DNA from: Mobula hypostoma
Lineage: Eukaryota
Assembly (NCBI RefSeq): GCF_963921235.1
Contig: NC_086108.1
Coordinates: forward strand, 12,586,001-12,650,000
DNA length: 64,000 nucleotides
Direction: 5' to 3'
The notes beneath the pieces are model-generated. The model did no database searches. It was not told the DNA's origin and saw nothing but the letters and a program-made list of their open reading frames with translations. Position numbers and translations under genes: made by a program. Below, in pieces: positions 1,824-48,850 of the stretch (positions are counted from its first letter, which is position 1; every line of letters starts with the position of its first letter).

Positions 1824-4676
1824 GACTGCCCATGGAGATTTCACAGTGACTGTCCACACAGATCTCATAGTGACTGCCCATGGAGATCTCATGGTGACTG
1901 TCCACACAGATCTCACAGTGACTGTCCACACGGATCTCACAGTGACTGCCCATGGAGATCTCACAGTGACTGTCCATGGAGATCTCACAGTGACTGTCCA
2001 CACAGACGGTACAGTGACGGTCCACACAGATCGCGCAGTCACTGTCCACACAGATCTCACAGTGACTGTCCATGAAGATCTTACAGTGGCTGTCCACACA
2101 GATCTCACAGTGACTGTCCACACGGATCTCACAGTGACTGTCCACACAGATCTCACAGTGACTGCCCATGAAGATCTCACAGTGACTGTCCACACAGATC
2201 TCACAGTGACTGCCCATGAAGATCTCACAGTGACTGTCCACACAGATCTCACAGTGACTGCCCATGAAGATCTCACAGTGACTGTCCACACAGATGGTAC
2301 AGTGACTGTCCACACAGATCTCACCGTGACTGTCCATGGAGATCTCACAGTGACTGTCCACACAGATCTCATAGTGACTGCCCATGGAGATCTCATGGTG
2401 ACTGTCCACACAGATCTCACAGTGACTGTCCACACGGATCTCACAGTGACTGCCCATGGAGATCTCACAGTGACTGTCCATGGAGATCTCACAGTGACTG
2501 TCCACACAGACGGTACAGTGACGGTCCACACAGATCGCGCAGTGACTGTCCACACGGATCTCACAGTGACTGTCCACACAGACCTCACAGTGACTGTCCA
2601 CACAGATCTCACAGTGACTGTCCACACGGATCTCACAGTGACTGTCCACACAGATCTCACAGTGAATGTCCATGGAGATCACACAGTGACTGTCCACACA
2701 GATCTCACAGTGACTGCCCATGAAGATCTCACAGTGACTGTCCACACAGATGGTACAGTGACTGTCCACACAGATCTCACCGTGACTGTCCATGGAGATC
2801 TCACAGTGACTGTCCATACGGATCTCACAGTGACTGTCCACACAGAGCACACAGTGACCGTCCACACAGACCTCACAGTGACTGTCCACACAGACCTCAC
2901 AGTGACTGCCCATAGAGATCTCACAGTGACTGTCCACACAGATCTCATAGTGAATGTCCATGAAGATCTCACAGTGGCTGTCCACACAGATCGCACAGTG
3001 ACTGCCCACACGGATCTCACAGTGACTGCCCATGGAGATCTCACAGTGACTGTCCACACTGATCTCACAGTGACTGTCCACACAGATCTCACAGTGACTA
3101 CCCATGGAGATCTCACAGTGACTGTCCACACAGATCTCACAGTGACTGCCCATGGAGATCTCACTGTGACTGCCCATGGAAATCTCACAGTGACTGTACA
3201 CACGGATCTCACAGTGACTGTCCATGGAGATCTCATAGTGACTGCCCATGGAGATCTCACAGTGACTGTCCACACAGATCGCACAGTGACGGTCCACACA
3301 GATCACACAGAGACTGTCTACACTGATCTCACAGTGACTGTCCATGGAGATCTCACAGTGACTGCCCATGGAGATCTCACAGTGACGGTCCACACAGATC
3401 GCACAGTGACTGTCCATGGAGATCACACAGTGACGGTCCACACAGATCACACAGAGACTGTCCACACTGATCTCACAGTGACTGTCAATGGAGATCTCAT
3501 AGTGACTGCCCATGGAGATCTCACAGTGACTGTCCACACAGATCGCACAGTGACGGTCCACACAGATCACACAGAGACTGTCTACACTGATCTCACAGTG
3601 ACTGTCCATGGAGATCTCACAGTGACTGTCCATGGAGATCTCACAGTGACTGTCCACACTGATCTCACAGTGACTGTCCACACAGATCACACAGTGACTG
3701 TCCACACTGATCTCACAGTGACTGTCCACACTGATCTCACAGTGACTGTCCACACAGATCGCACAGTGACTGTCCACACAGATCGCACAGAGACTGTCCA
3801 TGGAGATCTCACAGTGACTGTCCACACAGATCGCACAGTGACTATCCTCACAGATCGCACAGAGACTGTCCATGGAGATCTCACAGTGACTGTCCACACA
3901 GATCACACAGTGACTGTCTACAGAGACCTCACAGTGACTGTCCACAGAATCCTCATGGTGACTTTACACAGAGACCTCACAGTGATTTTACACAGAGAGC
4001 TCTCAGTGACTGTCCACAGAGACCTCAAACTGACACTCAGCAGAAACTTCACAGTGACTGTCCACAGAGATCCCACAGTGACTATCCAAAGAGAACTCAC
4101 AATGATTGTCCAATGAGCCTTCAAGATGACTGTCCATAAATACCCTACAGAGACCGTCCACAGTGACCTTAGAGTCTCTGTACACAGAAACCTCACAGTG
4201 ACCGACCACAGAGACATCACAATGACTCTCCACAGATAACTTACGGTGCCTGTCCACAGATATCTCCCAGTGGCTGTCCATAGAGACTTCACAGTCACTG
4301 TCCATTGATACCTACAAACACCGTCCACAGTGACCTCAGAGTCTCTGTACACAGAGACCACACAGTGACCGACCACAGAGATCTAACAGTGACTGTCAAC
4401 AGAGACCTCACAATAAATCTCCAGGGAGACCTCACGATGGATCTCCAGGCTGATCTCGCAGCAACTGTCCACAAAAACATCGCAAGACTACACCCAACGA
4501 TCTCACTGTGACCATCCACAGTGACTTCAGAATGTATGTCCATAGAGACCTCACAGAAACTATCCACAGAAATCTCCCAGTGATTGACCACAGAGACCTC
4601 ACAGTGACTGTCCACAGTTACCTTAGAGTATCTGTCCACATAGACCCCACAGTGATTGTCCTCAGCGACTATCCAC
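1822..4676. repeat. 24-bp minisatellite (GATCTCACAGTGACTGTCCACACA), about 119 units, degenerate toward the right
   Basis: Directly visible tandem unit; explains the 8-aa periodic ORFs on both strands. Confidence 0.97.
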
Positions 4677-34059: not shown

Positions 34060-36327
34060 TAGTCCGTGAGCCAGTAGGGTTGGTACCTTCTGCGGGGAAT
34101 AATGCTCATAGTGATTTTTGGCAAGGTATACATCTCTAGAGTTAGAAAATATGTGTACGGGTTCTAGTGCCACACTTCCGGAACAATAGGGCCTCAATCT
34201 TGTCACAAAATGCTAAAGACATGATAACGACATCTGTGACTTCTGAGCAGATCAACTCAGATTGGTATCCCTCTCTTGTGGCATAGGCAGCATGGAGAAG
34301 TAGGCGGCCACCTGCTTCTTTTTGTTGACACTGAAGAGCTGACACCTCCTCACTGTCTTGGGATGTGATTCTGTAACATTTGTCATTCACAGTTACATAC
34401 AGAATCTTCTCCTGTAGCCTTGCTCTGTACTCCGCCTTCCTCCATTCATGGACTATGAAGCTAATGAGAGTATTTTTGTTACTGACTTTGGTCAGGAAGC
34501 TCCTCCACTGCTTCACCATCTGTGTGCCTGTGATACCTTACAATTCATGACCAGTCTCTTCACCCCGTAGAGATCCTTCATTATTCTTGATAGAGTTCTC
34601 CTTGTATGAGTCAAACACAACATCTATTCTGCTACTCTGACTGACTTCCCTCACAGCCATACCCAGGATTGTTGTGGCAACACCCCTGAAAGTAACTTGA
34701 TCACCTTTCACTCTTTGGACCAAGTTCATTCCATCAACCACTGTAGCAGAGTTTCCTGGGAGTTGCTCTTCTACTGCTACATTTTTCTGCAAGGTTGTAG
34801 CTAAAGTAGCTTTATTTGTCTTTCTCGGCAACCCTTCTGATGTGGACAGGGCCCAAGGCAATGGTCCAAGAGGATGAGAAAGGATATCCTCCATATGTAG
34901 ACTGCCCCCTTGTGCTATCACTATGATGCTTCCAAACAAGGACCAGTCTGCTTTCAAGATGATTGCCCTCCCATTTGATTTCACTTCTCTCTTCTTACAC
35001 ATATCACTGAATGTTTTCAGCTTGTTGGTTTTCACTGGGTCATGGAATTTCTTTGCTGGTGGGTCTTCCTCTAGTCTCTCATCCTTGAAGGTCGCATAGC
35101 ATTGCTCACCAATCTCATATGCCTTCATCAGGTCGGAGGCAATGTCCTTGGGGGCTGCCTTTGCCGTAGAGATGCTAATGAGGTCCCGATTCTCTGCAAA
35201 TGGGTTGACCCATTCATGTAACCACTGCTGAAACTGCCTCCTCATCTTTCTGGATTCTTTGCCGCTGTAACTCCACATGACAAAGCTCTGATTTGTTGCC
35301 TTGCACCATCTCCCTCAACTGTCCCAGGAATGCACTGCGATGCTCAGCTGTTATGTAGTAATGCTTGATAGCTCCAGCATTCAGGCTGAACTCTGATGTG
35401 CCTCCAGGAGTCTATGTGTCTTTGTTCACTGTGGCTTCAACAGCCTGGTCCACTGGGATCTGCCCAGAGGGGTTGTTACTTGGCAGCTGCACTGAGAATT
35501 GGCCTGTCTTGAAGGCCCCATACACAGAAGGATTCTTCTCTGGGAGGTTCATCATCTGAGCAAAGTAAGGGGACAGGTCATAGTCATAGTCATACTTTAT
35601 TGATCCCGGGGGAAATTGGTTTTCGTTACAGTTGCACCATAAATAATAAATAGTAATAAAACCATAAATAGTTAAATAGTAATATGTAAATTATACCAGT
35701 AAATTGTGAAATAAGTCCAGGACCAGCCTATTGGCTCAGGGTGTCTGACCCTCCAAGGGAGGAGTTGTAAAGTTTGATGGCCACAGGCAGGAATGACTTC
35801 CTATGACGCTCTGTGCTGCATCTCGGAGGAATGAGTCTCTGGCTGAATGTACTCCTGTGCCCAACCAGTACATTATGTAGTGGATGGGAGACATTGTCCA
35901 AGATGGCATGCAACTTGGACAGCATCCTCTTTTCAGACACCACCGTGACAGAGTCCAGTTCCATCCCCACAACATCACTGGCCTTACGAATGAGTTTGTT
36001 GATTCTGTTGGTGTCTGCTACCCTCAGCCTGCTGCCCCAGCACACAACAGCAAACATGATCGCACTGGCCACCACAGAGTCGTGCCACCCCTTACCTCCA
36101 CCGGTACCTGGCATAATTCATCTTATCATAGGCAAAGCACCATGGGATCATGGTTCTTACAGCGTGGAGGTGCATCTCCCAGTCCCCCTCACAGAAAGCT
36201 ACCACCGCTGCAATGCTATCACGTATTTTCTAGCACTAGGGGTGTATACCTTGCCAAAAATCACTCTAAGAATTATTCCCCCCAGATGGTACCGTGGCCT
36301 AAATTTGGGGTCCTGGCTCACGGATTA
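34060..36327 (-). mobile_element. Internally deleted Academ DNA transposon with XPG/FEN-like nuclease domain
   Basis: TAGTCCGTGAGCCAG...CTGGCTCACGGATTA termini extending to about 100-bp TIRs; 3-bp TSD ATT; motifs FAYDKMNYARY, VVDG, VVFDSY..NSIK, EAGGRLLLHA and SEVTDV. Confidence 0.85.
35578..36081 (-). mobile_element. Rex1/Babar 3' fragment inserted in Academ
   Basis: Near-identical to 30295-30800; (TATGAC)n tail; splits the NYARY|LSPYFAQM motif. Confidence 0.93.
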
Positions 36328-37667: not shown

Positions 37668-38335
37668 AGTTCATTTGAATTGACTTTATTACTTACATCC
37701 TTCATATACACGAGGAGTAAAAACCTTTACATTATGTCTCCATCTATATGTGCAATCTGAAATTTATAATAAATAGTATGTACAACAATATAACATAGAA
37801 ATACAGTTTTGTCAGCATGAATTAATCAGTCTGATAGCCTGGTGGAAGAAGCTGTCCTGGAGCCTGTTGGTCCTGGCTCTTGTGCTGTGGTGCCATTTCC
37901 CAGATGGAAGCAGCTGGAACAGTTTGTGGTTGGGGTGACTCAGGCCCCCAAGGATCCTTCAGGCCCTTTTTACACACCTGTCTTTGTAAATGTCCTGAAT
38001 CATGGGAAGTTCACATCCGCAGATGCGCTGGGCTGTCCACACCACTCTCTGCAGAGTCCTGCAATTAAGGGGGTACAGTTCCCATACCAGGCAGTGATGC
38101 AGCCAGTCAGGATGCTCTCAATTGTGCCCCTGTAGAAAGTTCTTAGGATTTGGGGGACCATATCAAACCTCTTCAAACTTCTGAGGGAAAAGCGGCGCTG
38201 TTGTGCCTTTTTCACCACACAATCAGTATGTACAGACCATGTGAGTATGCCAAGGAATTTAAAGCTATTCACCCTCTCAACCCCAGATCCATTGATGTCA
38301 ATAGGGGTTAGCCTGTCTCCATTCCTCCTGTAGTC
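37668..38335 (-). mobile_element. Rex-like LINE 3' fragment
   Basis: VERVNSFKFLG, FYRGTIESILTGCITAWYG. Confidence 0.85.
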
Positions 38336-38487
38336 CAGTGATAATGCGTAATTCATAATGTCTCCAAGCTCAGCCATTGCCTGGATTCCTGAAGTGAGGG
38401 AAACCTGGGGTTTTAGTGACAGAGGCATTTGCAGAAGACATTTTAACTTGCAGTAATTTATGTAATAAATACAATCAGAATTGGAAT

Positions 38488-39165
38488 AAGAATCAGAATC
38501 AGGTTGTTAAATAAGTAGTGCAAAAAAAGTAGTGAGGTAGAATTCATGGGTCCATTGTCCATTCCAAAATTGGATGGCAGAGGAGAGACAGCTGTTCCTG
38601 AATTCTTAAGTGTGTGCCTTCATGCTCCTGTACCTCCTCCTTGATGGCAGCAATGAGAAGAAGGCATTTCCCGGGTGGTGGGGGTCCTTCATAATGGATG
38701 CTGCTTTTTTGAGGCATTGCTCCTTGAAGATGTTCTGGATACTACAGAGGCTAGTGCCCGTGACTGAGCTGACTGAGTTAACAACTCTGCAGCTGATTTT
38801 GATCCTGTGCAGTAGACCCGCCCCCCCCACCATACCAGACAGAGATGCAGCCAGTTAGAATGCTCTCCATGGTACATCTGTAAAAATTTGCGAGTGTCTT
38901 TGGTGACATACTAAATCTCCTCAAGCTCCTAGTGAAATATATTCACTGTTGTGCCTTCTTTGTGACTTTGTCATTATGCTGGACATAGGACAGATCCTCA
39001 GAGACATTGACACCCAGGAACTTGAAATTGTTCACTCTTTCCACTTCTGATCCCTCTGTGAGGACTGGTGTGTGTTCCCTCGTCTTATCCTTTCTGAAGT
39101 CCACAATCAATCCTTTGGTCTTATTGATGTAGAGTACAAGGTTGTTCCTGTGACACCACTCTTTC
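38488..39165 (-). mobile_element. Rex-like LINE 3' fragment
   Basis: WCHRNNLVLYINKTKGLIVDFRK...FKFLGV; (GATTCT)n tail. Confidence 0.85.
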
Positions 39166-41109
39166 TGTGCTCTGGACAACCATAGGTGTGAAGATTGCCA
39201 GTCTGAGCTCCAGGTTTTGGAATTTGATGTCACTCCAGTCCAGTGATGGGGCTGAATTTCATGGCGAGCAGGAGGTGATGAAGAGAAAGCAGGCGAGATT
39301 GGGTACCAGACAGCCAGATGTTAAAAGAGCACCCCTGTCAATTCATGCACAGTTCAGGACAGAACTGTCTCAACACTGTAAAAAAATGAGGTAAATTTTC
39401 CCAGTGTTAGCCTTTTGGAACAAATACCAGCACTGAATATTCAAAAGGTTTCGACTAGTTGGGATGTGCTACCATTGCAAAATATGCAACTTCATCTATT
39501 TACCTGACTATATTCAAAATGTTAAGTTCAGTAGGTGATTATAGAAATTGAAACTTAGTTAATCATATTGGTGTTGAAGTATAAATCATTCTGCCACACA
39601 AGTGAAATTCTCTTGAATTTTTGTGGACTCAATCTCTCCTGGAGCCTTGCTGTGTGAATAAAGACATTTATATTGGTTTGTGTGTTAGGTCACAAACACT
39701 TTGTCACAAATTGAGGTGACATCATCGCAATTGAGTGTTGTTTCTTGCTGAGTGCTCGCATTTCTATTGGCCCGACTGACTCATTGTTGTGATTGGTTGG
39801 CTGTCATGTTGGCCACTTGTCTCTGCCTGGTCCCAGCCAACCAGACAGCTGATTGTTCTCTGCTGGCCTGTATCCCTGGTTATTGGTCGTTGTGAGTGTA
39901 GCCCCCTAGTAAGCCTTAGGCTCACTCAAATCGCTTTCGTCTAGGGGGAGCAGCCTTCAGTCCCGCCAAACTGGGTAATCAACTTTGTGTGGATGCTGTG
40001 TGATGTACCCCTCCCCCACAATAACAGACAATACACCATATGCGATTGAATGATTACAATTTATAGATATTACTGGAACTATGTAATTAATAGAGATAAA
40101 ATATAAAGGGAAAGTAAAAGGCGCCAAACTTACCAAAGTTCAACCACTTCATGTACAACAGTTGGAGTTCAAGTAACGGAGTCTTCTTTCCACCATTCGA
40201 TCCCCTCCGACCCCCTCAACCCGCCGCCTGGGATCAACCATGGTGGTCGACCAGACGCTCCACACGAGTCAGTCTTTGCGTCTCCTCTCCTCGCCGAAGA
40301 CTCTGGGCCTCAGACTCCCGCTCGGGGTCCGTCTCGTTGGCCAGCTTACAGCATCGTGTCTCCTCTCTCTGTCCCCATCGCACCTTCTCCCCCAAAGCCC
40401 GCGCAACACAATTGTTTACAAACACACAAGAAAGAATAACATTTATCCCAATTGGTTCATTCTCTCTCTTATCAATAACATAACCCAAACAAGCAGAGAG
40501 AGAGAGAGAACTCTTTACATCGCAGTTATTTCAGAAAAGCCATTTTAATTATGACATAACAAAGAAGCCATTTTGATTAGCCTACGCAGTAACATAAAAG
40601 AAGAAACCCCTCACACTCTCCCCCCACCAAATAAAGTCATGTCCTCAAGACTTCTAAATAACTCGCCCACCCTTCCTGCAGACACAAAAACCCAATCCAG
40701 GTACAGTCACATGGCTCCCCAAACAGTAGACCTTACGCCCTGTTCCATGAGCACTACATAGGCCAACCTATCTTGTAGTTTCCTAATCCTCCGAGACCTC
40801 CGTATCCCCTCACCTAAACCCTGAAGGCTTAGACACTACTGGGGATACCTCGGGTCTGCTTGCCAACTCCTCTCTCAATCTCTCACTCATGCCCCCACAG
40901 CACTTCGGAGCCCCCGTCCCATGTCCGGGGCCCCGCTTCTTTTCCTTCAGGGTCCTGCAGTAACCCAAGCTGCCCACACCTAGCCCTTCCCACTACCTCT
41001 GACTCAGTGGGAGAAGGGTCAAAAGTCTCTTTCTCAATCAAGAGGAAGTTAGCGAAAGGCAGCATGTACCACACATCTAGCACATCATCCTTCGAATCCG
41101 TATTCTTCC

Positions 41110-41500
41110 TCATTTCCTCGATCGGTAGCTGCTGTTTGATTTTCTCCAAACTGAAGCACTTAGCCTGGGCTGCCTCTGCAGCCTCTCCAGCCTCCTGTGA
41201 TCGAAATGTCAGCTTCTTCTCTGACTCCTCCAACCCTCACCCTAGTCTCAGCAGTTCTGACCCACGCTTCATGTCCATCTCCATCTGGGATGCAATTGCA
41301 CCACCAGCTTCTTCCAATCTGTTCTGGATCGATGTCTTGAGTTTCTGCTGATCCTTTCGAAGGTTGGTCATTGTTTCGTCTCTCTGGATTAATTCATCAG
41401 TACATGACCACAGTCTCGGCTCGGAATTCCATTTCCCCGTCTCCACTTTGACAAGCGTGAACTCTAGGTCTTCAGTGGTTGTCCCGGACTCCGGCACTCG
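41110..41500 (-). pseudogene. Captured fragments of a sarcomeric (class II) myosin heavy chain rod inside the Gypsy element
   Basis: EDLEFTLVKVE...[35 protein letters not shown] and [34 protein letters not shown] match myosin rod motifs as I recall them ([58 protein letters not shown].K). Confidence 0.85.
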
Positions 41501-42363
41501 CCTCACATCATTGTCCCCCAAGGCAAATCCAAACCCTAGGCAATCATCCACATACGCCAAAACTCCAAACACCTCCACATCCCCCATGGTCTTCCTCATG
41601 CCCCACGGGAAGGTTGCAGGGGCTCTGGATAGGCCCTGTGGCATCCTTTTGGATCAGAAGAGTCCTAGGGAACCTATAACAGCCGTCTTCTCCCTGTCAG
41701 CCTCACTCTTCGGGATCTGGCAACATCCACTCCTCAGATCCAGCACATTAAACCACGTCGCACCATACAAACAGACCATAGCATCTTCGGCCCTCAGGGC
41801 TGTATTCTGTTCAATGACAGTGCACCTGTTCAGAGTCCTATAATTGTGTGGATTACGGCGACTGGACTCTGTAGCTGTGGAAGACGTAGGCACACACACA
41901 CTGCCTACGTCTTCCACAGCTACAGGGTCCAGTCGCCGTGACCTCTCTGTCACCGAGGTGTCTTCAGTGGTCAATTCCCCTCCCTCGTGGTATTTCAGAG
42001 CGTCTACTAAGAGGGTCTCACCCTCAGATACCTCCCCCAGGCCGTACCACAATCGGCTCTCGTTTAATTCGGTACCGGCCCGAGGCTGCTACACACGTCC
42101 TCACAAGCAGCTCGAAACACTGGGTGCATAGACAATGCCCCATGAACTCCAGTGTCACTAACCAATATCGTCTTCTGGATAATCACTGGCACTGGTACTC
42201 CAAATCTCCAGTTGCCCTTAATATTGTCAAGGGTAAATGCTTCAGACACCGGTTGTAAAACGAACTGTACAACAACTTGACCTGCGCCCCAGTGTCGAGG
42301 ATGGCTTTAGCATAGCTTCCATCTATCTGTAACGACACACGGGGGCGTAGTCCCTCCAAGCCT
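41501..42363 (-). pseudogene. Degenerate Gypsy protease and partial RT
   Basis: AILDTGAQV protease motif near 42285-42310; RT motifs [36 protein letters not shown] and YVDD. Confidence 0.88.
41855..41939. repeat. Near-perfect inverted repeat: 38-bp arms, 9-nt (CA)n loop
   Basis: Arms 41855-41892 and 41902-41939 differ at one position. Confidence 0.95.
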
Positions 42364-43074
42364 TCAGGAATAGGGTCTTTTCCTTTCAGAAGTTCCTTGG
42401 TACATTGCTGGGAATGTGCTCCCCAGAGACCCCAAGCCGTTCTCCCACTGGGCCTCCTCTAAGTTTCCCAACACCTCTCTGATCAGCTGAACAACTGAGG
42501 GAGTGGCTGATCCCCTGAAATGATCCCCCTGGCACCGCAAGCAATTTAGCCACCCTCCTAGCCAGAGAAGATGCACTGAAAGCTTTTTCCCAATCTCCTG
42601 ACACAGGTATGGAAAGCCCCCCGGGCACTGCATTTTACTTCCAGTCGAACCAGACGCATTTTCCCCCACTTCCAAATAACTGGCAGCTGTCATTATGGGG
42701 TAATTGAACCTGACAGTTCTAACACCATCAACAGCCTGCCTACTCAAACTTTCAACCAATCCCTGTCGCTCTCCCTGAACTGAGCACAGCCACTCATCTA
42801 ACAACTGAGCAATCCGTTCCACCCACGTCTTGTACGCCTCCACCCCTTTAGGGGTGGACAATATCCCAAAAGCCAGGTGGAGCCTGCCATAGCTGGAACA
42901 TTTATCCGCAGACACTACCTCCGAATCAGACCACTTTTTCCTCTCTTTCCTAACAGTATGGACAGCCCCTGGTCCCACCAACACGCATGCAGTAATAACC
43001 AGCAATCCCACAGAGACACGCATCACTAACTGCAATCCCACAGAGACACAGCAGCACTGATTTAAACAGGGCAA
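42364..43074 (-). pseudogene. PNMA-type Gypsy gag remnant
   Basis: YGRLHLAFG...GVEAYKTWVE...LDEW...ERQGLVESL...A resembles the PNMA/Gypsy capsid N-terminal motif. Confidence 0.75.
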
Positions 43075-43098: not shown

Positions 43099-43116
43099 GT
43101 CCTGGACGAGCCGCCA
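43099..43116 (-). promoter_or_regulatory. Primer-binding site, tRNA-Pro-like
   Basis: TGGCGGCTCGTCCAGGAC lies 2 nt after the 5' LTR; 15/18 match to the tRNA-Pro PBS TGGGGGCTCGTCCGGGAT. Confidence 0.75.
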
Positions 43117-44359
43117 AATGTAGACCCCTGGTAAGCCCCAGGCTCACTCAGCTCGCTTTTGTCTAGGGGGAGCAGCCTTCGGTCCCACCAAACTGGGTAA
43201 TCAAGTTTGTGTGGACACTGTATGATGTACCCCACCACGCCAAATATCAGACAGTACACCATGTATGATTAAATGATTAGAACTTATAGATATTACTGGA
43301 AATATGTAATTAATAGAGATAAAATATAAAGGGAAAGTAAAAGACGCCAAGCTTATCAAAGTTCAACCACTTGGTGCACAACCATTGGAGCTCAAGTAAC
43401 GGAGTCTTCTTTCCACCATTTGATCCCCTCCGACCCCCTCGACCCGCCGCCTGGGACCAACCACGGTGGTCGACCAGACGCTCCACACGAGTCTGTCTTC
43501 ATCTCCTCTCCTTGCTGAAGACCCTGGGCCTTGGACTCCCGCTCGGGTTCTGTCCCGTCGGCCAGCTTGCAGCATCGTGTCTCCTCTCTCTGTCCCCATC
43601 GCGCCTTGTCCCCCAAAGCCCGTGCAACACAATAGCTTACAGACACACAAGAAAGAATAACATCTATCCCAATTGGTTCGTTCTCTCTCTTATCAATAAC
43701 ATAACCCAAACAAGCAGAGAGAGAGAAAACTCTTTACATCGCAGTTATTTCAGAAAAGCCATTTTAATTATAACATAACAAAGAAGCCATTTTGATTAGC
43801 CTACGCAGTAACATAAAAGACGAAACCCCTTACATGGGCATTGGTTCTTCGGGTGGCCACAGCTCACTGCACTGCCCTGATCCCGCAGACACAAAGTGTT
43901 CATAAATTGCATCCAGTTCAATATCCTTGTTAACAGTTTTCCCTTGAGAATCAAGCTTCTAGGAATTCTCTTGATTTCCTGTCTTATGTTTCATCCAGGA
44001 TTTTTGTAGTTTCCCAAACGAACTTGTGTCCTTCTGGGTGTGCCAGAGGATCGTGTCTTCTTATGGCTAGCTGATGTTCATGTAGTCTCATGAGCAGATT
44101 TCTTCCCATCTGTCCTACATCTTGTTTGGGGCAGTCTCCATATTGGATTTGGTATTTTACATTTGTACTCTCCAGATGAGCTGTTGGATCCCAGTTAAAG
44201 CTGCCATGTGGCTCAGATTTAGCACATAAGAAGAGGAAGAAGAGGAGACTTCAGATAATGTGTGGATGAAGAGTTGGATTCCAATTCCAGTGTCTATGGG
44301 GCCAGTTCCACGGAAATTGCTTCAGGCCTGAAACACCTCAGTGCAATAATATTGTGGTA

Positions 44360-45712: not shown

Positions 45713-47223
45713 CCTTTGCCATGGAAAAGAATTAGGATAAAATAGCAGTAAACATTCTAAATTGGCAGATGAACAATTGGGAGGTGATTTAGAGCACACA
45801 TCTAAAGAGATTTGAGGAGTTTGGGTCAATCACATTCAGGGGGTTTGAGGTAATCACATTCTACAACTGGAAAGGGTGGGACTACCAGATCTAAGGCCGT
45901 CTCTTCTGCGTTGAGAAGGTGAATGGGGGTAAGGTTATCAAAATCACAATCAGGTTTAATATCACTGGCACATGTCATGAAATTTGTTGGCTTTGTGGCA
46001 GCAGTGCAATGCAATACGTGCTAATAAAAAAAAAACAGGAATTTCTCTAAATGTATATATTACAATAGATTACAACGTTTAAGTTTGGATAGGTAGATGG
46101 ATAGGTAGGGTATGGCTCTGGTGTGGGTCAACAGGAGGAATGCAGGCAGAACATTAGTTAGGCATGGTGTGTGTGTGTGTTTTAATAGTTAAATTAAATA
46201 AGTACTGCAAAAAATGTAGTGGGGTAGTGTTCATGGGTTCAACTTTCATTCAGAAATCTGTTGGCAGAGGGGAAGAATCTGTTCCTGAATCATTGAATGT
46301 GAGCCTTCAGGCTCCTGTACCTCCTTCCTGATGATAGCAATGAGAGCGGGACACAGCATGGGTGATGGGGGTCCTTAATGATGGTTGCCGCCATTTTGAG
46401 GGATCACTCCTTGAAGATGTCCTGGGTGCTGGGAAGGCTAGTGCCCATGATGCAGCTGCCTGAGTTTACAACTCTCTGCAGCTTATTTTGATCCTGTACA
46501 GTAGCTCCCCTGCCCTGTCCTCCCTGCCATACCAGATGGTGATGCCGTCAGTTAAACTGCTCTCTATGCTACATCCCTGAGGCTCCAGAGGGCTCCTGTG
46601 CTGTGGAAGACATCCGGCCTCGTCCCTGTGCCGAAGACGCCGCACCCCAGCGGCCTCAATGACTACAGATCGGTGGCATTGACCTCCCACATCATGAAGA
46701 CCCTAGAGAGACTTGTTCTGGAGCTGCTCCGGCCTATGGTTAGGCCACACTTATATCCCCTCCAGTTCGCCTACCAGCCCCGACTAGGAGTTGAGGATGC
46801 CATCGTCTACCTGCTGAACCGTGTCTATGCCCACCTGGACAAGCCAGCGAGCACTGTGAGGGTCATGTTTTTTGACTTCTCCAATGCGTTCAACACCATC
46901 TGCCCTGCTCTGCTGGGGGAGAAGCTGACAGTGATGCAGGTGGATGCTTCCCTGGTGTCATAGATTCTTGATTACCTGACTGACAGACCACAGTACGTGT
47001 GCTTGCAACACTGTGTGTCCGACAGAGTGATCAGCAGCACTGGGGCTCCACAGGGGACTGTCTTGTCTCCCTTTCTCTTCACCATTTACACCTCGAACTT
47101 CAACTACTGCACAGAGTCTTGTCATCTTCAGGAGTTTTCTGATGACTCTGCCATAGTTGGATGCATCAGCAAGGGAGATGAGGCTGAGTACAGGGCTACG
47201 GTAGGAAGCTTTGTTCACATGGT

Positions 47224-48850
47224 AAACACAAAATAATCTGCAGATACTGGGGTCAAAGCAACACTCACAACACACTGGAGGGACTCAGCAGGTCGGGCAG
47301 CATCCGTGGAAACAATGAGTCGACGTTTCAGGCCAGAACCCTTTGTCAGGACTGAAGGGGGAAGGGGCAGAGGCCCCATAAAGAAGGTAGGGGGAGGGTG
47401 GGAAGGAGAAGGCAGGTGGGTTCCAGGTGAAAAACCAGTAAGGGGAAAGATAAAGGGGTAGGGGAAGAGAGGCAGGGAGGTGATAGGCAGGAAAAGTGAA
47501 GAAGGAATAGGGGAAAACACAATGGGTGGTAGAAGGAGGCGGGACCATGAGGGAGGTGATAGGCAGCTGGGAGAGGGGGCAGAGTGACATAGGGATAGGG
47601 GAAGGGAGGGGGAGGGAATTACCGGAAGTTGGAGAATTCTATGTTCATACAAAGGGGCTGGAGACTACCTGGACGGTATTTGAGGTGTTGCTCCTCCAAC
47701 CTGAGTTTAGCCTCATCATGGTAGTGGAGGAGGCCATGAATGGACATATCTGAATGGGAATGTGAAGCAGAGTTGAAGTGAGTGGCTACTGGGAGATCCT
47801 GTCTGTCTTGGCGGACGGAGCGGAGGTGCTCGACGAAGCGGTCCCCCAATCTGCGTTGGGTTTCACCAATGTAGAGGAGGCCGCACCGGGAGCACCGGAT
47901 GCAATAGATGACCCCAACAGACTCACAAGTGAAGTGTTGCCTCACTTGGAAGTACTGTTTGGGGCCCTGAATGGTGGCAAGAGAGGAGGTGTAGGGACAG
48001 GTGTAGCACTTGCGCTTACAGGGGTAAGTGCCAGGTGGGAGATCCGTGGGGAGGGACCGATCCCTGCGGAAGGTGGAGAGGGGTGGAGAGGGAAAGATGT
48101 GCTTAGTGGTGGGATCCTGTTGAAGGTGGCGGAAGTTGCAGAGGATAATGTGCTGGATCCAAAGGCTAGTGGGGTGGTAGGTGAGGACAAGGGGAACTCT
48201 GTCCCTGTTGTGGTGGCGGGAGGATGGGGTGAGGGCTGAAGTGCGGGAAATGGAGGAGATGCGGGTGAGGGCATCATTGATGACAGCAGAAGGGAAACCA
48301 CGATCCTTAAAGAAAGAAGACATTTGAAATGTCCTGGAATGGAAAGTCTTATCCTGGGAGCAGATGCTGCAGAGACGGAGGAACTGGGAATAGGGAATGG
48401 CATTTTTGCATGTGGCGGGGTGGGAAGAGGTATAGTCGAGGTAGTTATGAGAGTCAGTGGGCTTGTAGAAGATGTCAATGGACAGTCTGTCTCCAGAGAT
48501 GGAGACCGAGAGATTGAGAAAGGGGAGAGAAGTGTCCGAGATAGACCAAGTGAATTTGAGGGCTGGGTGGAAGTTAGAAGTAAAGTGATGAAATTGACGA
48601 GCTCAGCATGGGTGCAGGAAGCAGCACCAATGTAGTCCTCAATGTACCGAAGGAAAAGTTGGGGAGCAGTACCAGAATAGGTTTGGAGCACAGACTGTTC
48701 CACATAACCAACAAAGAGGCAGGCATAGCTAGGGCCCATGCGAGTTCCCATAGCTACACCTTTGGTCTGGAGAAGGTGGGAAGAGCCAAAAGAGAAGTTA
48801 TTGAGTGTGAGAACCATTTCCGCTAATCAGAGGAGGGTAGTGGCGCTGGG
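47224..48850 (-). mobile_element. Penelope-like (Neptune-type) element, inverted copy: partial RT, GIY-YIG, terminal repeat
   Basis: QTKGVAMGTRMGPSYA, RYIED, Cys linker YPCKRKCYTC, VIYCIRC..CGLLYIGET..RLGDRFVEH. Confidence 0.93.

Follow-up and report, generated by a model that had tools for sequence, protein, structure and literature searches.

A window of 64,000 nucleotides from the genome of Mobula hypostoma (contig NC_086108.1, positions 12,586,001 to 12,650,000; all unlabelled positions below are those of this window) holds, on its minus strand, a decayed Gypsy-type long terminal repeat (LTR) retrotransposon whose pol region contains sequence derived from the rod of a sarcomeric myosin heavy chain (MYH) (Table 1). 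The two LTRs lie in direct orientation, end in TGT...ACA and are 91.2% identical (652 matches, 63 mismatches), and a sequence resembling a primer binding site (PBS), TGGCGGCTCGTCCAGG (TGGCGG..), starts 2 nt past the 5′ LTR. The remnants of gag, protease (PR) and reverse transcriptase (RT) are each in a different frame. The RT remnant carries an in-frame stop at 41654-41656 and ends approximately 20 codons past its YVDD motif (41554-41543), with DNA homology to an autonomous relative stopping at 41489. From 41653 to 40883 the minus-strand frame runs through YVDD, EDLEFTLVKVETGK and the myosin pieces, a TGA at 41239-41237, the third myosin piece and the C-terminal tail of pol, which is in frame with the myosin pieces; the RT-to-tail frame of this copy holds two stops. 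Its pol consists of PR and a shortened RT, with RNase H and integrase (IN) missing from the order PR-RT-RNaseH-IN, and the window copy is best classed as a defective derivative of an autonomous Gypsy-type clade rather than as an autonomous member. An original prediction, made from the letters of the window, had described the LTRs, PBS, polypurine tract (PPT) and target site duplication (TSD) as retained; this holds for the LTRs and the PPT, whereas the PBS is putative and the TSD is imperfect (CCCA/CTCA).

Table 1. Features of the myosin-bearing LTR element and of the sequence flanking it (window positions).
Feature	Position	Strand	Basis
5′ TSD candidate CCCA	43835..43838	-	3/4 bases as in 3′ flank CTCA
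5′ LTR, 716 nt, TGTAAGGGG...GGTCTACA	43119..43834	-	sequence comparison with 3′ LTR
Putative PBS region TTTGGCGGCTCGTCCAGGAC	43099..43118	-	read from sequence
gag-like open reading frame (ORF), PNMA-type capsid	42364..43074	-	Pfam PNMA, E 8e-11, 42.1 bits (cut-off 25)
PR remnant	42183..42458	-	ORF list; homologous to protease of P0006, P0009 and P0010
RT remnant	41489..42088	-	weak Pfam RVT_1 match; ORF list
MYH piece 1a, 3′ part of donor exon X1	41429..41500	-	82.9% over 70 nt to host exon L065
MYH piece 1b, part of next donor exon X2	41317..41428	-	X2-homologous sequence past X1 end
MYH piece 2 (..LEES)	41222..41316	-	alignment to L050; 83.9% to donor-type exon L060
MYH piece 3	41114..41221	-	PDB match MYH7 1386-1421; host exon junction
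pol C-terminal tail	40883..41113	-	homology to autonomous copy L056, 66% over 160 nt
PPT GGTGGGGGGAGAG, 13 nt	40616..40628	-	directly before 3′ LTR; identical in autonomous copy L056+L057
3′ LTR, 719 nt, TGTGAGGGG...GGGGCTACA	39897..40615	-	sequence comparison with 5′ LTR
3′ TSD candidate CTCA	39893..39896	-	flank reading
LINE-type-looking ORF fragment	35728-36117	-	by eye, ORF list
LINE-type-looking ORF fragment	38000-38506	-	by eye, ORF list
LINE-type-looking ORF fragment	38943-39320	-	by eye, ORF list
LINE-type-looking ORF fragment	46556-47236	+	by eye, ORF list

The myosin-derived stretch extends from approximately 41500/41478 to approximately 41114, inside the originally noted 41110-41500 at both ends. 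When the translation of 41500-41240 was compared with PDB chains using phmmer, 13 sequences matched at E ≤ 10, and the best nine were all myosin-4 or myosin-7 (E 0.0039-0.064), aligned to two stretches (MYH4 957-1012 and 1139-1175); the other four were a keratin, two kinesins and apoA-IV, with E from 3.7 to 8.7. For 41236-41120 all eight matches were to MYH7 or MYH4, at MYH7 1386-1421 (E 2.6e-6 to 9.4e-4). The three pieces in the window are colinear with the sarcomeric myosin rod, and less deleted variants of the same insert match MYH7 912-1088 and 1300-1425 in PDB searches (E 5e-9). The myosin resemblance is real and goes beyond generic coiled-coil noise, bearing out the claim that rod sequence follows the RT YVDD motif on the minus strand: the peptides are present, the top PDB matches are all myosins, and specific exons of the host match the insert at the DNA level, as set out below. 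The insert itself is best read as a decayed fragment derived from a myosin rod, not as a myosin gene.

Host MYH genes were located using PF01576 together with exon peptides. A donor exon, X1 (L065, contig C68:14524969-14525196), has a polypyrimidine-AG acceptor and a CAG/GTGGGT donor site and reads ERESRADSEQRCAQLLKVKLELEAQVADLNERLLRQEICAAELNTQKCRLQTECRNLGTNIEELESTLVKVETEKQ; along its full 228 nt it shares 91.2% identity with the element copy found to be least deleted (L064, C1:175392300-175394400), and over 70 nt it shares 82.9% with window 41500-41432. A second donor-type exon (L060, from C68:14666491) matches L064 at 90.9% identity and, over 62 nt, window 41286-41225 at 83.9%. The residues ELLRL, which had been likened to particular myosin genes, are present in L060 and are thus a feature of the donor paralog. 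The donor is most readily identified as a divergent sarcomeric MYH paralog of the host, with exons at approximately 14.52 and 14.67 Mb of contig C68. The low identity of the insert to MYH7 and to the fast-type MYH of the host (30-40% at the amino acid level) had been considered as a sign of extreme age, but most of it reflects the divergence of the donor paralog itself. No specific name for the donor was obtained: an Atlas look-up yielded only "Myosin tail domain-containing protein", and the NCBI names of the copies conflict. The same contig holds, at C68:15.31-15.90 Mb and approximately 0.65 Mb from the donor-type exons, a tandem cluster of at least eight near-identical sarcomeric MYH genes, whose exon peptides are 79-100% (X1) and 77-83% (X5) identical to the queries.

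The exon structure of these host genes points to a spliced message. Donor exon X1 ends in ..GAGAAACAG/gtgggt, and the window instead runs on into X2-homologous sequence, spanning the X1/X2 junction (41429/41428) without an intron; the exon acceptor before IEMNKK in L060 (Q/IEMNKK) is likewise spanned at 41285/41284. Long variants span X2/X3 and X3/X4, as read from the exons of a host MYH gene, L064 additionally spans X4/X5 without an intron, and all variants span the host exon junction ELEEAK/KKL. Because no intron remains at any of these junctions of the donor exons, the captured nucleic acid was spliced mRNA. The claim of a host mRNA origin is thereby upheld in the window and extended by the longer variants; an intron suggested at ENK/VKN does exist in a host fast-type MYH gene, whereas the junction of the donor paralog lies five codons earlier.

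Autonomous relatives of the element were recovered by comparing the PR-RT part of a longer copy with 1.84 billion representative proteins, which yielded the full Gypsy-type pols P0006, P0009 and P0010, the last of which also carries RT-RNaseH-IN. Genome searches were made in the animal's own assembly (3.48 Gb, 200 contigs). P0006 has 29281 first-look candidates there, and the 147 that were scored show 77-87% amino acid identity with open frames of up to 1453 aa. One autonomous copy (L056+L057, C40:64400300-64405600) encodes RT-RNaseH-integrase followed by a pol C-terminus homologous to the window tail, and its LTR start, TGTATGGGG, is similar to that of the window element. Since this copy has RT-RNaseH-integrase where the window has myosin sequence, with a common tail, a common PPT and a similar LTR start, the insert stands in place of RNase H and integrase, as had been proposed for the window. 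The pol C-terminal region of L056+L057 also contains, at approximately nt 2680-3400, a long series of tandem 14-residue repeats (GEGVAEPPVLQPGL and variants), which is open in all three frames and is missing from the chimeric family.

Longer copies place the three myosin pieces of the window in a common history. Variant L050 has an open frame of 637 aa and keeps 276 nt that are gone from the window; in L050 this stretch has the direct repeat TGGAAGA at either end, one copy of which survives in the window (41316-41310), and its loss is in frame. L050 is itself without 9 nt that the window keeps, and because each type keeps sequence that the other is without, the two are sister lineages. The annotated proteins P0160, P0161 and P0023 keep more MYH sequence (..AELSAQKCRPDTECRACGTTIADLEFTVVNVEKEQRNSEPTLRSCTVELIQ..), with P0161 matching MYH7 912-1088 as one stretch (E 5e-9). 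L064 has a complete RNase H to ..YRPGSRNIDVDVLSR.. (..NIDVDVLSR..), then MYH sequence from the exon start through ..RRELEES, then KKKLTSRLQ..KTKQQPQIEE and the pol tail, so that between NIDVDVLSR and the tail it is integrase that is missing, with more missing in the window. The 5′ half of the fifth exon is kept in only two copies (four matches among 22 candidates, the other two being host genes). In every variant seen, RRELEE(S/A) is joined to KKKL, and this join sits between two ELEEA-coding repeats of the MYH message. The RT-MYH junction of the window looks like another deletion at short similarity, given that 41500-41480, the first 12-20 nt of piece 1a, aligns to both RT and exon X1. Nucleotides 41478-41416 (63 nt) had been read as a possible RT thumb remnant and later as an RNase H remnant (THKLEFLALKW-like), the RNase H reading having been prompted by RNase H-derived sequence nearby in the long variant; P0160, P0161, P0023 and donor exon L065 rule out both readings and assign these nucleotides to MYH exon X1. 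The three segments, which the original prediction matched to three regions of the rod, are the remnants of one longer captured cDNA after in-frame deletions, not of three captures.

The chimera is abundant in the M. hypostoma genome, by first-look candidate counts that are lower bounds and overlap between queries. A DNA query of window 41100-41520 gave 847 first-look candidates, the 40 scored being the window itself (100%) and 39 copies at 90-96% identity over nearly the full length, and the MYH-tail junction (41040-41240) gave 1102, of which 40 were scored. The annotated protein P0001, which represents a longer form of the insert, gave 1436, and all 150 scored matches, spread over many contigs, are 86-97% identical at the amino acid level over almost all of its 227 residues; the insert lies within open frames that reach 836 aa. 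Twelve window-type copies that were fetched have the same layout, and in each of the three for which both ends lie in the fetched locus the element is flanked by a perfect 4-bp TSD, different in each case (AGAC, TAAG and TGTG), with LTR pairs that are 86.6-93.6% identical. From the different TSDs and the divergence of the LTR pairs it follows that the chimera itself was transposed many times, long ago, and the suggestion that it was mobilised as a family is supported by these counts and duplications. Within the myosin region, one copy lying 3.3 Mb from the window on the same contig (L008/L015, C50:15923677-15924119) shares 96-97% identity with the window copy, where the other scored copies reach 90-93%; it may represent a closely related sister insertion, or else a duplication.

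The MYH-tail junction recurs in proteins annotated for Mobula birostris, M. hypostoma, Hypanus sabinus and Hemitrygon akajei; in the Hypanus protein P0004, gag, PR, RT, myosin and tail form a single frame of 729 aa. As the family is common to both groups, the capture would be older than the split between manta/devil rays and stingrays, or the family was transferred between them. In public annotation its members carry the names "myosin heavy chain, cardiac muscle isoform-like", "myosin-7B-like" and "putative uncharacterized protein MYH16", and also "striated muscle-like", "skeletal muscle-like" and "transmembrane protein 192 isoform X1"; the myosin-like names given among P0002, P0003, P0022, P0023, P0162, P0164 and P0004, and the fusion of one copy to "transmembrane protein 192", are probably annotation artefacts.

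Taken together, the window very probably holds an old, decayed copy of a non-autonomous Ty3/Gypsy-type family that arose by LTR-mediated mRNA capture. In the ancestor, almost all of the integrase would have been exchanged for approximately 1 kb of cDNA copied from the spliced message of a divergent sarcomeric MYH paralog. The capture most likely took place inside a virus-like particle, where RT may have switched between element RNA and co-packaged MYH mRNA at short similarity to give LTR-gag-PR-RT-RNaseH/MYH rod/pol C-terminal tail-PPT-LTR. With its LTR ends, putative PBS, PPT and gag kept, this chimera could have been copied and integrated by the enzymes of autonomous relatives acting in trans. 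Amplification followed to more than 1000 copies, each with its own 4-bp TSD, a step that we regard as established. Repeated in-frame losses between short direct repeats during replication would have produced several subfamilies. In that of the window, the RT thumb and RNase H would have gone, together with approximately 55 codons at the start of MYH exon X1 and another 276 nt, which is why three myosin segments directly follow YVDD.

The capture junctions bear on how the chimera was made. In L064 the change from pol to MYH falls inside the 12-mer GATCGGGAGAGT, which agrees with the start of exon X1 at 11 of 12 positions and with pol at nine, and a search with the RNaseH junction gave 40 scored matches, five of which span it (one being the query) and 35 of which are of autonomous type; in 32 of these 35 the match reaches 10-12 nt beyond the junction, to where the shared 12-mer ends. 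The RT template switching of the original prediction is backed by this 12-nt microsimilarity at the ancestral 5′ junction, while the switch itself is something that we infer. It is possible, though unlikely, that the 5′ junction was instead made by splicing. An element would have lain in sense orientation in the MYH intron upstream of X1, and in a read-through transcript a cryptic splice donor, situated where RNaseH meets integrase, would have been joined to the acceptor of X1. Only the 3′ junction would then be due to a non-homologous RT switch, and the whole would follow the classical route of acutely transforming retroviruses. Such an origin is favored by the homology between L064 and the exon, which starts at exon nt 1 with MYH-specific bases already at nt 4 and 7, by the preceding 12 nt of L064, which resemble pol (8/12) and not the donor intron (2/12), and by the 3′ junction (approximately 41114/41113), which lies mid-exon in the canonical gene structure. 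However, GT is lacking at the corresponding site in the pol of the autonomous copy that was read (..GCC GAG GAG TGG AAG AGT GTC..), and pol and exon agree at 10 of the 12 nt, which alone fits a microsimilarity switch. At the 3′ junction the autonomous copy is 34% diverged.

That no capture took place at all, the window holding an LTR element and a processed myosin pseudogene nested by chance, or merely a generic coiled-coil similarity, is hardly credible. The absence of a Pfam myosin tail call in the window copy and its imperfect TSD would agree with such an origin, but identical junctions recur at more than 1000 loci on many contigs with different TSDs, the DNA identity to specific host MYH exons is 83-91%, myosins alone score in the PDB searches, and no poly(A) is present at the 3′ junction in the window, where the frame goes straight into the pol tail. 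A broader scenario, in which the Gypsy clade of myliobatiform rays would be a serial transducer of host mRNAs that forms exon-boundary chimeras by splicing, like acutely transforming retroviruses, with the chimeras kept through manta and stingray history, the gag-to-tail frame needed in cis and the coiled coil selected as a spacer or oligomerisation module, is considered improbable.

Several observations weigh against LTR-mediated capture as outlined, or against parts of it. The ancestral 5′ junction lies at most 3 nt from the 5′ end of donor exon X1, which fits a splice-mediated junction better, and random template switching would by our own estimate place a junction so near an exon start approximately 4% of the time. 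A distance of 141 kb separates the donor-type exons L065 and L060, which may be parts of two genes. The autonomous copies examined are only 62-68% (L056) to approximately 80% identical to the chimera at the DNA level, and are therefore at best candidates for the helper family of a presumed mobilisation in trans. The 4-bp TSD of the window copy is imperfect, and the species comparison, which covers manta/devil rays and stingrays, is limited in what it says of age. The myosin tail model suggested as a check on the original prediction, Pfam PF01576 (Myosin_tail_1), gave no match to the window ORFs at E ≤ 1, and it missed L050, P0004 and P0001 at E ≤ 0.1; because Pfam made no such call, the homology is shown by the PDB searches with phmmer and by the host exons.

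Whether the captured sequence has been under selection was addressed using the ratio of nonsynonymous to synonymous differences (pN/pS). Within the window-type family this ratio is 0.68 for PR-RT and 0.69 for MYH, and approximately 0.7 was taken from these values as an empirical neutral baseline. The between-subfamily excess gave 0.60 for MYH, 1.29 for PR-RT and 0.78 for the tail. Long-variant copies were picked by protein score, which biases pN low, and their within-family ratio of 0.28 is biased in this way. No convincing sign of constraint on the myosin peptide appears in this pN/pS comparison, with its biased long-variant sample, and the myosin piece seems to behave as a passenger. All subfamily-level indels seen between RT and tail keep the frame (a net 117-nt loss, the 276-nt loss and the 9-nt difference), a pattern that is suggestive at best, three such indels having a chance probability of approximately 0.04.

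It is very doubtful that the coiled coil or the open gag-to-tail frame serves the element, be it through oligomerisation of the polyprotein, a need for the tail in cis, or protection of the RNA from decay. A function of this kind would accord with the in-frame state of every RT-to-tail subfamily indel seen at the DNA level, with the annotated variants in four species that read through in frame, and with open frames of up to 836 aa holding the insert. However, the between-subfamily pN/pS of MYH is 0.60 against a baseline of approximately 0.7 and long-variant sampling pushes pN down, the insert is progressively deleted in every lineage, three in-frame indels arise by chance with a probability of only approximately 0.04, and gene models favor open frames.

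A second myosin chimera, unrelated to that of the window, was encountered at C18:48744023-48748231 (L021), where an intronless non-muscle-type MYH rod follows an ORF resembling that of a transposable element (TE) in one frame. The rod is called by Pfam as Myosin_tail_1 (positions 514-920, 432 bits, with six stops), and the TE-like ORF has a CCHC knuckle and a protease-like peptide. The MYH half of L021 is 87% identical to host exon C45:100200138-100200391, and the chimera has no DNA similarity to the Gypsy-MYH family of the window. Its search gave 195 first-look candidates, mostly from the TE half alone, and DNA spanning its junction was found at six loci with 77-81% identity to L021; besides L021, the chimera is noted at C50:30.69 Mb, on C157 and C184, and at C12:196.94 and 197.10 Mb. 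In the window itself, ORF fragments that look by eye to be of long interspersed nuclear element (LINE) type, comprising RT and C-terminal parts (e.g., ..HRKSFLPVAIKLYNSS and ..LVPVPKTPHPSGLNDYRSVALTSHIMKTLERLV..), flank the LTR element.

The family provides a clear vertebrate case of an LTR retrotransposon with a captured, spliced host mRNA that then achieved high-copy, non-autonomous success across several species; the published animal cases considered here number one to a few copies. Its deletion derivatives at short repeats form a natural series for the study of template switching by Gypsy reverse transcriptase, and the junction at the exon start can help to separate splice-mediated from microsimilarity-mediated capture. 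In ray genomes, copies may be annotated by the hundred as "myosin heavy chain-like", "myosin-7B-like" or "MYH16" genes, as has already happened with some of them, leading to inflated gene counts. A literature search, in which bioRxiv supplements were not covered, found no report of this family. The mechanism and type of product are known, and the scale and persistence differ, with at least approximately 1000 copies, several deletion subfamilies, and four species in two ray families.

In the oncogene transduction of acutely transforming retroviruses, pol is replaced by spliced host cDNA in a helper-dependent virus, with a 5′ junction that coincides with a boundary between host exons and a 3′ junction that falls within one exon. 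The available part of PMC5131818 also mentions this process. The ray element is alike in being replication-defective and in having the same pattern of an exon-boundary 5′ junction and a mid-exon 3′ junction; unlike these viruses, it is a germline-fixed, endogenous Gypsy-type element whose passenger is a structural coiled-coil fragment of no evident selective value.

LARD and TRIM elements are non-autonomous LTR retrotransposons mobilised in trans, and the maize element Bs1 has a low copy number. Trans-mobilised elements share with the ray family the absence of integrase and RNase H, a PPT and LTR termini like those of autonomous relatives, and a high copy number with TSDs. Unlike MaLR, LARD and TRIM, the ray element has retained gag, protease and some of its RT, and host coding sequence lies in its interior. 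The mobilisation of MaLR in trans by MERVL is noted in the available text of PMC5131818. Bs1, as portrayed in the accessible portion of PMC13317346, is also a non-autonomous LTR element with transduced host gene fragments inside; it differs in being a plant element with three donor genes, whereas the ray family has one animal donor, carried in frame between RT/RNaseH and the tail, and is massively amplified.

Among vertebrates, crocodilian endogenous retroviruses captured KIT-ligand and nectin3 mRNA and are present in 9 and 6 copies, respectively, according to the available part of Chong et al. (2014, PMC4299795). These too are vertebrate germline retroelements with captured spliced host mRNA, in several copies shared by related species; however, that source describes complete ORFs and reports purifying selection on the captured gene, whereas the Gypsy-type element of rays carries a rod fragment without detectable constraint in more than 1000 copies. 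The closest parallel is with the LTR-mediated chimeric retrocopies described in the available part of Tan et al. (2016, Genome Res 26:1663, PMC5131818), of which 15 are polymorphic in Drosophila and one to five each are given for mosquito, zebrafish and chicken; the published cases are young, occupy one or few insertion sites and are attributed there to a microsimilarity-dependent template switch. In these retrocopies, as presented there, and in the ray family alike, part of an internal ORF is replaced by an intronless copy of a host mRNA, both LTRs are kept, and further cycles of retroposition can follow as a pseudo non-autonomous element; the retrocopies have microsimilarity at a fusion point, for which the 12-mer at the 5′ junction is the candidate counterpart in the ray family. 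Unlike the retrocopies in that account, the ray chimera has reached at least approximately 1000 copies, with several deletion subfamilies, in four ray species.

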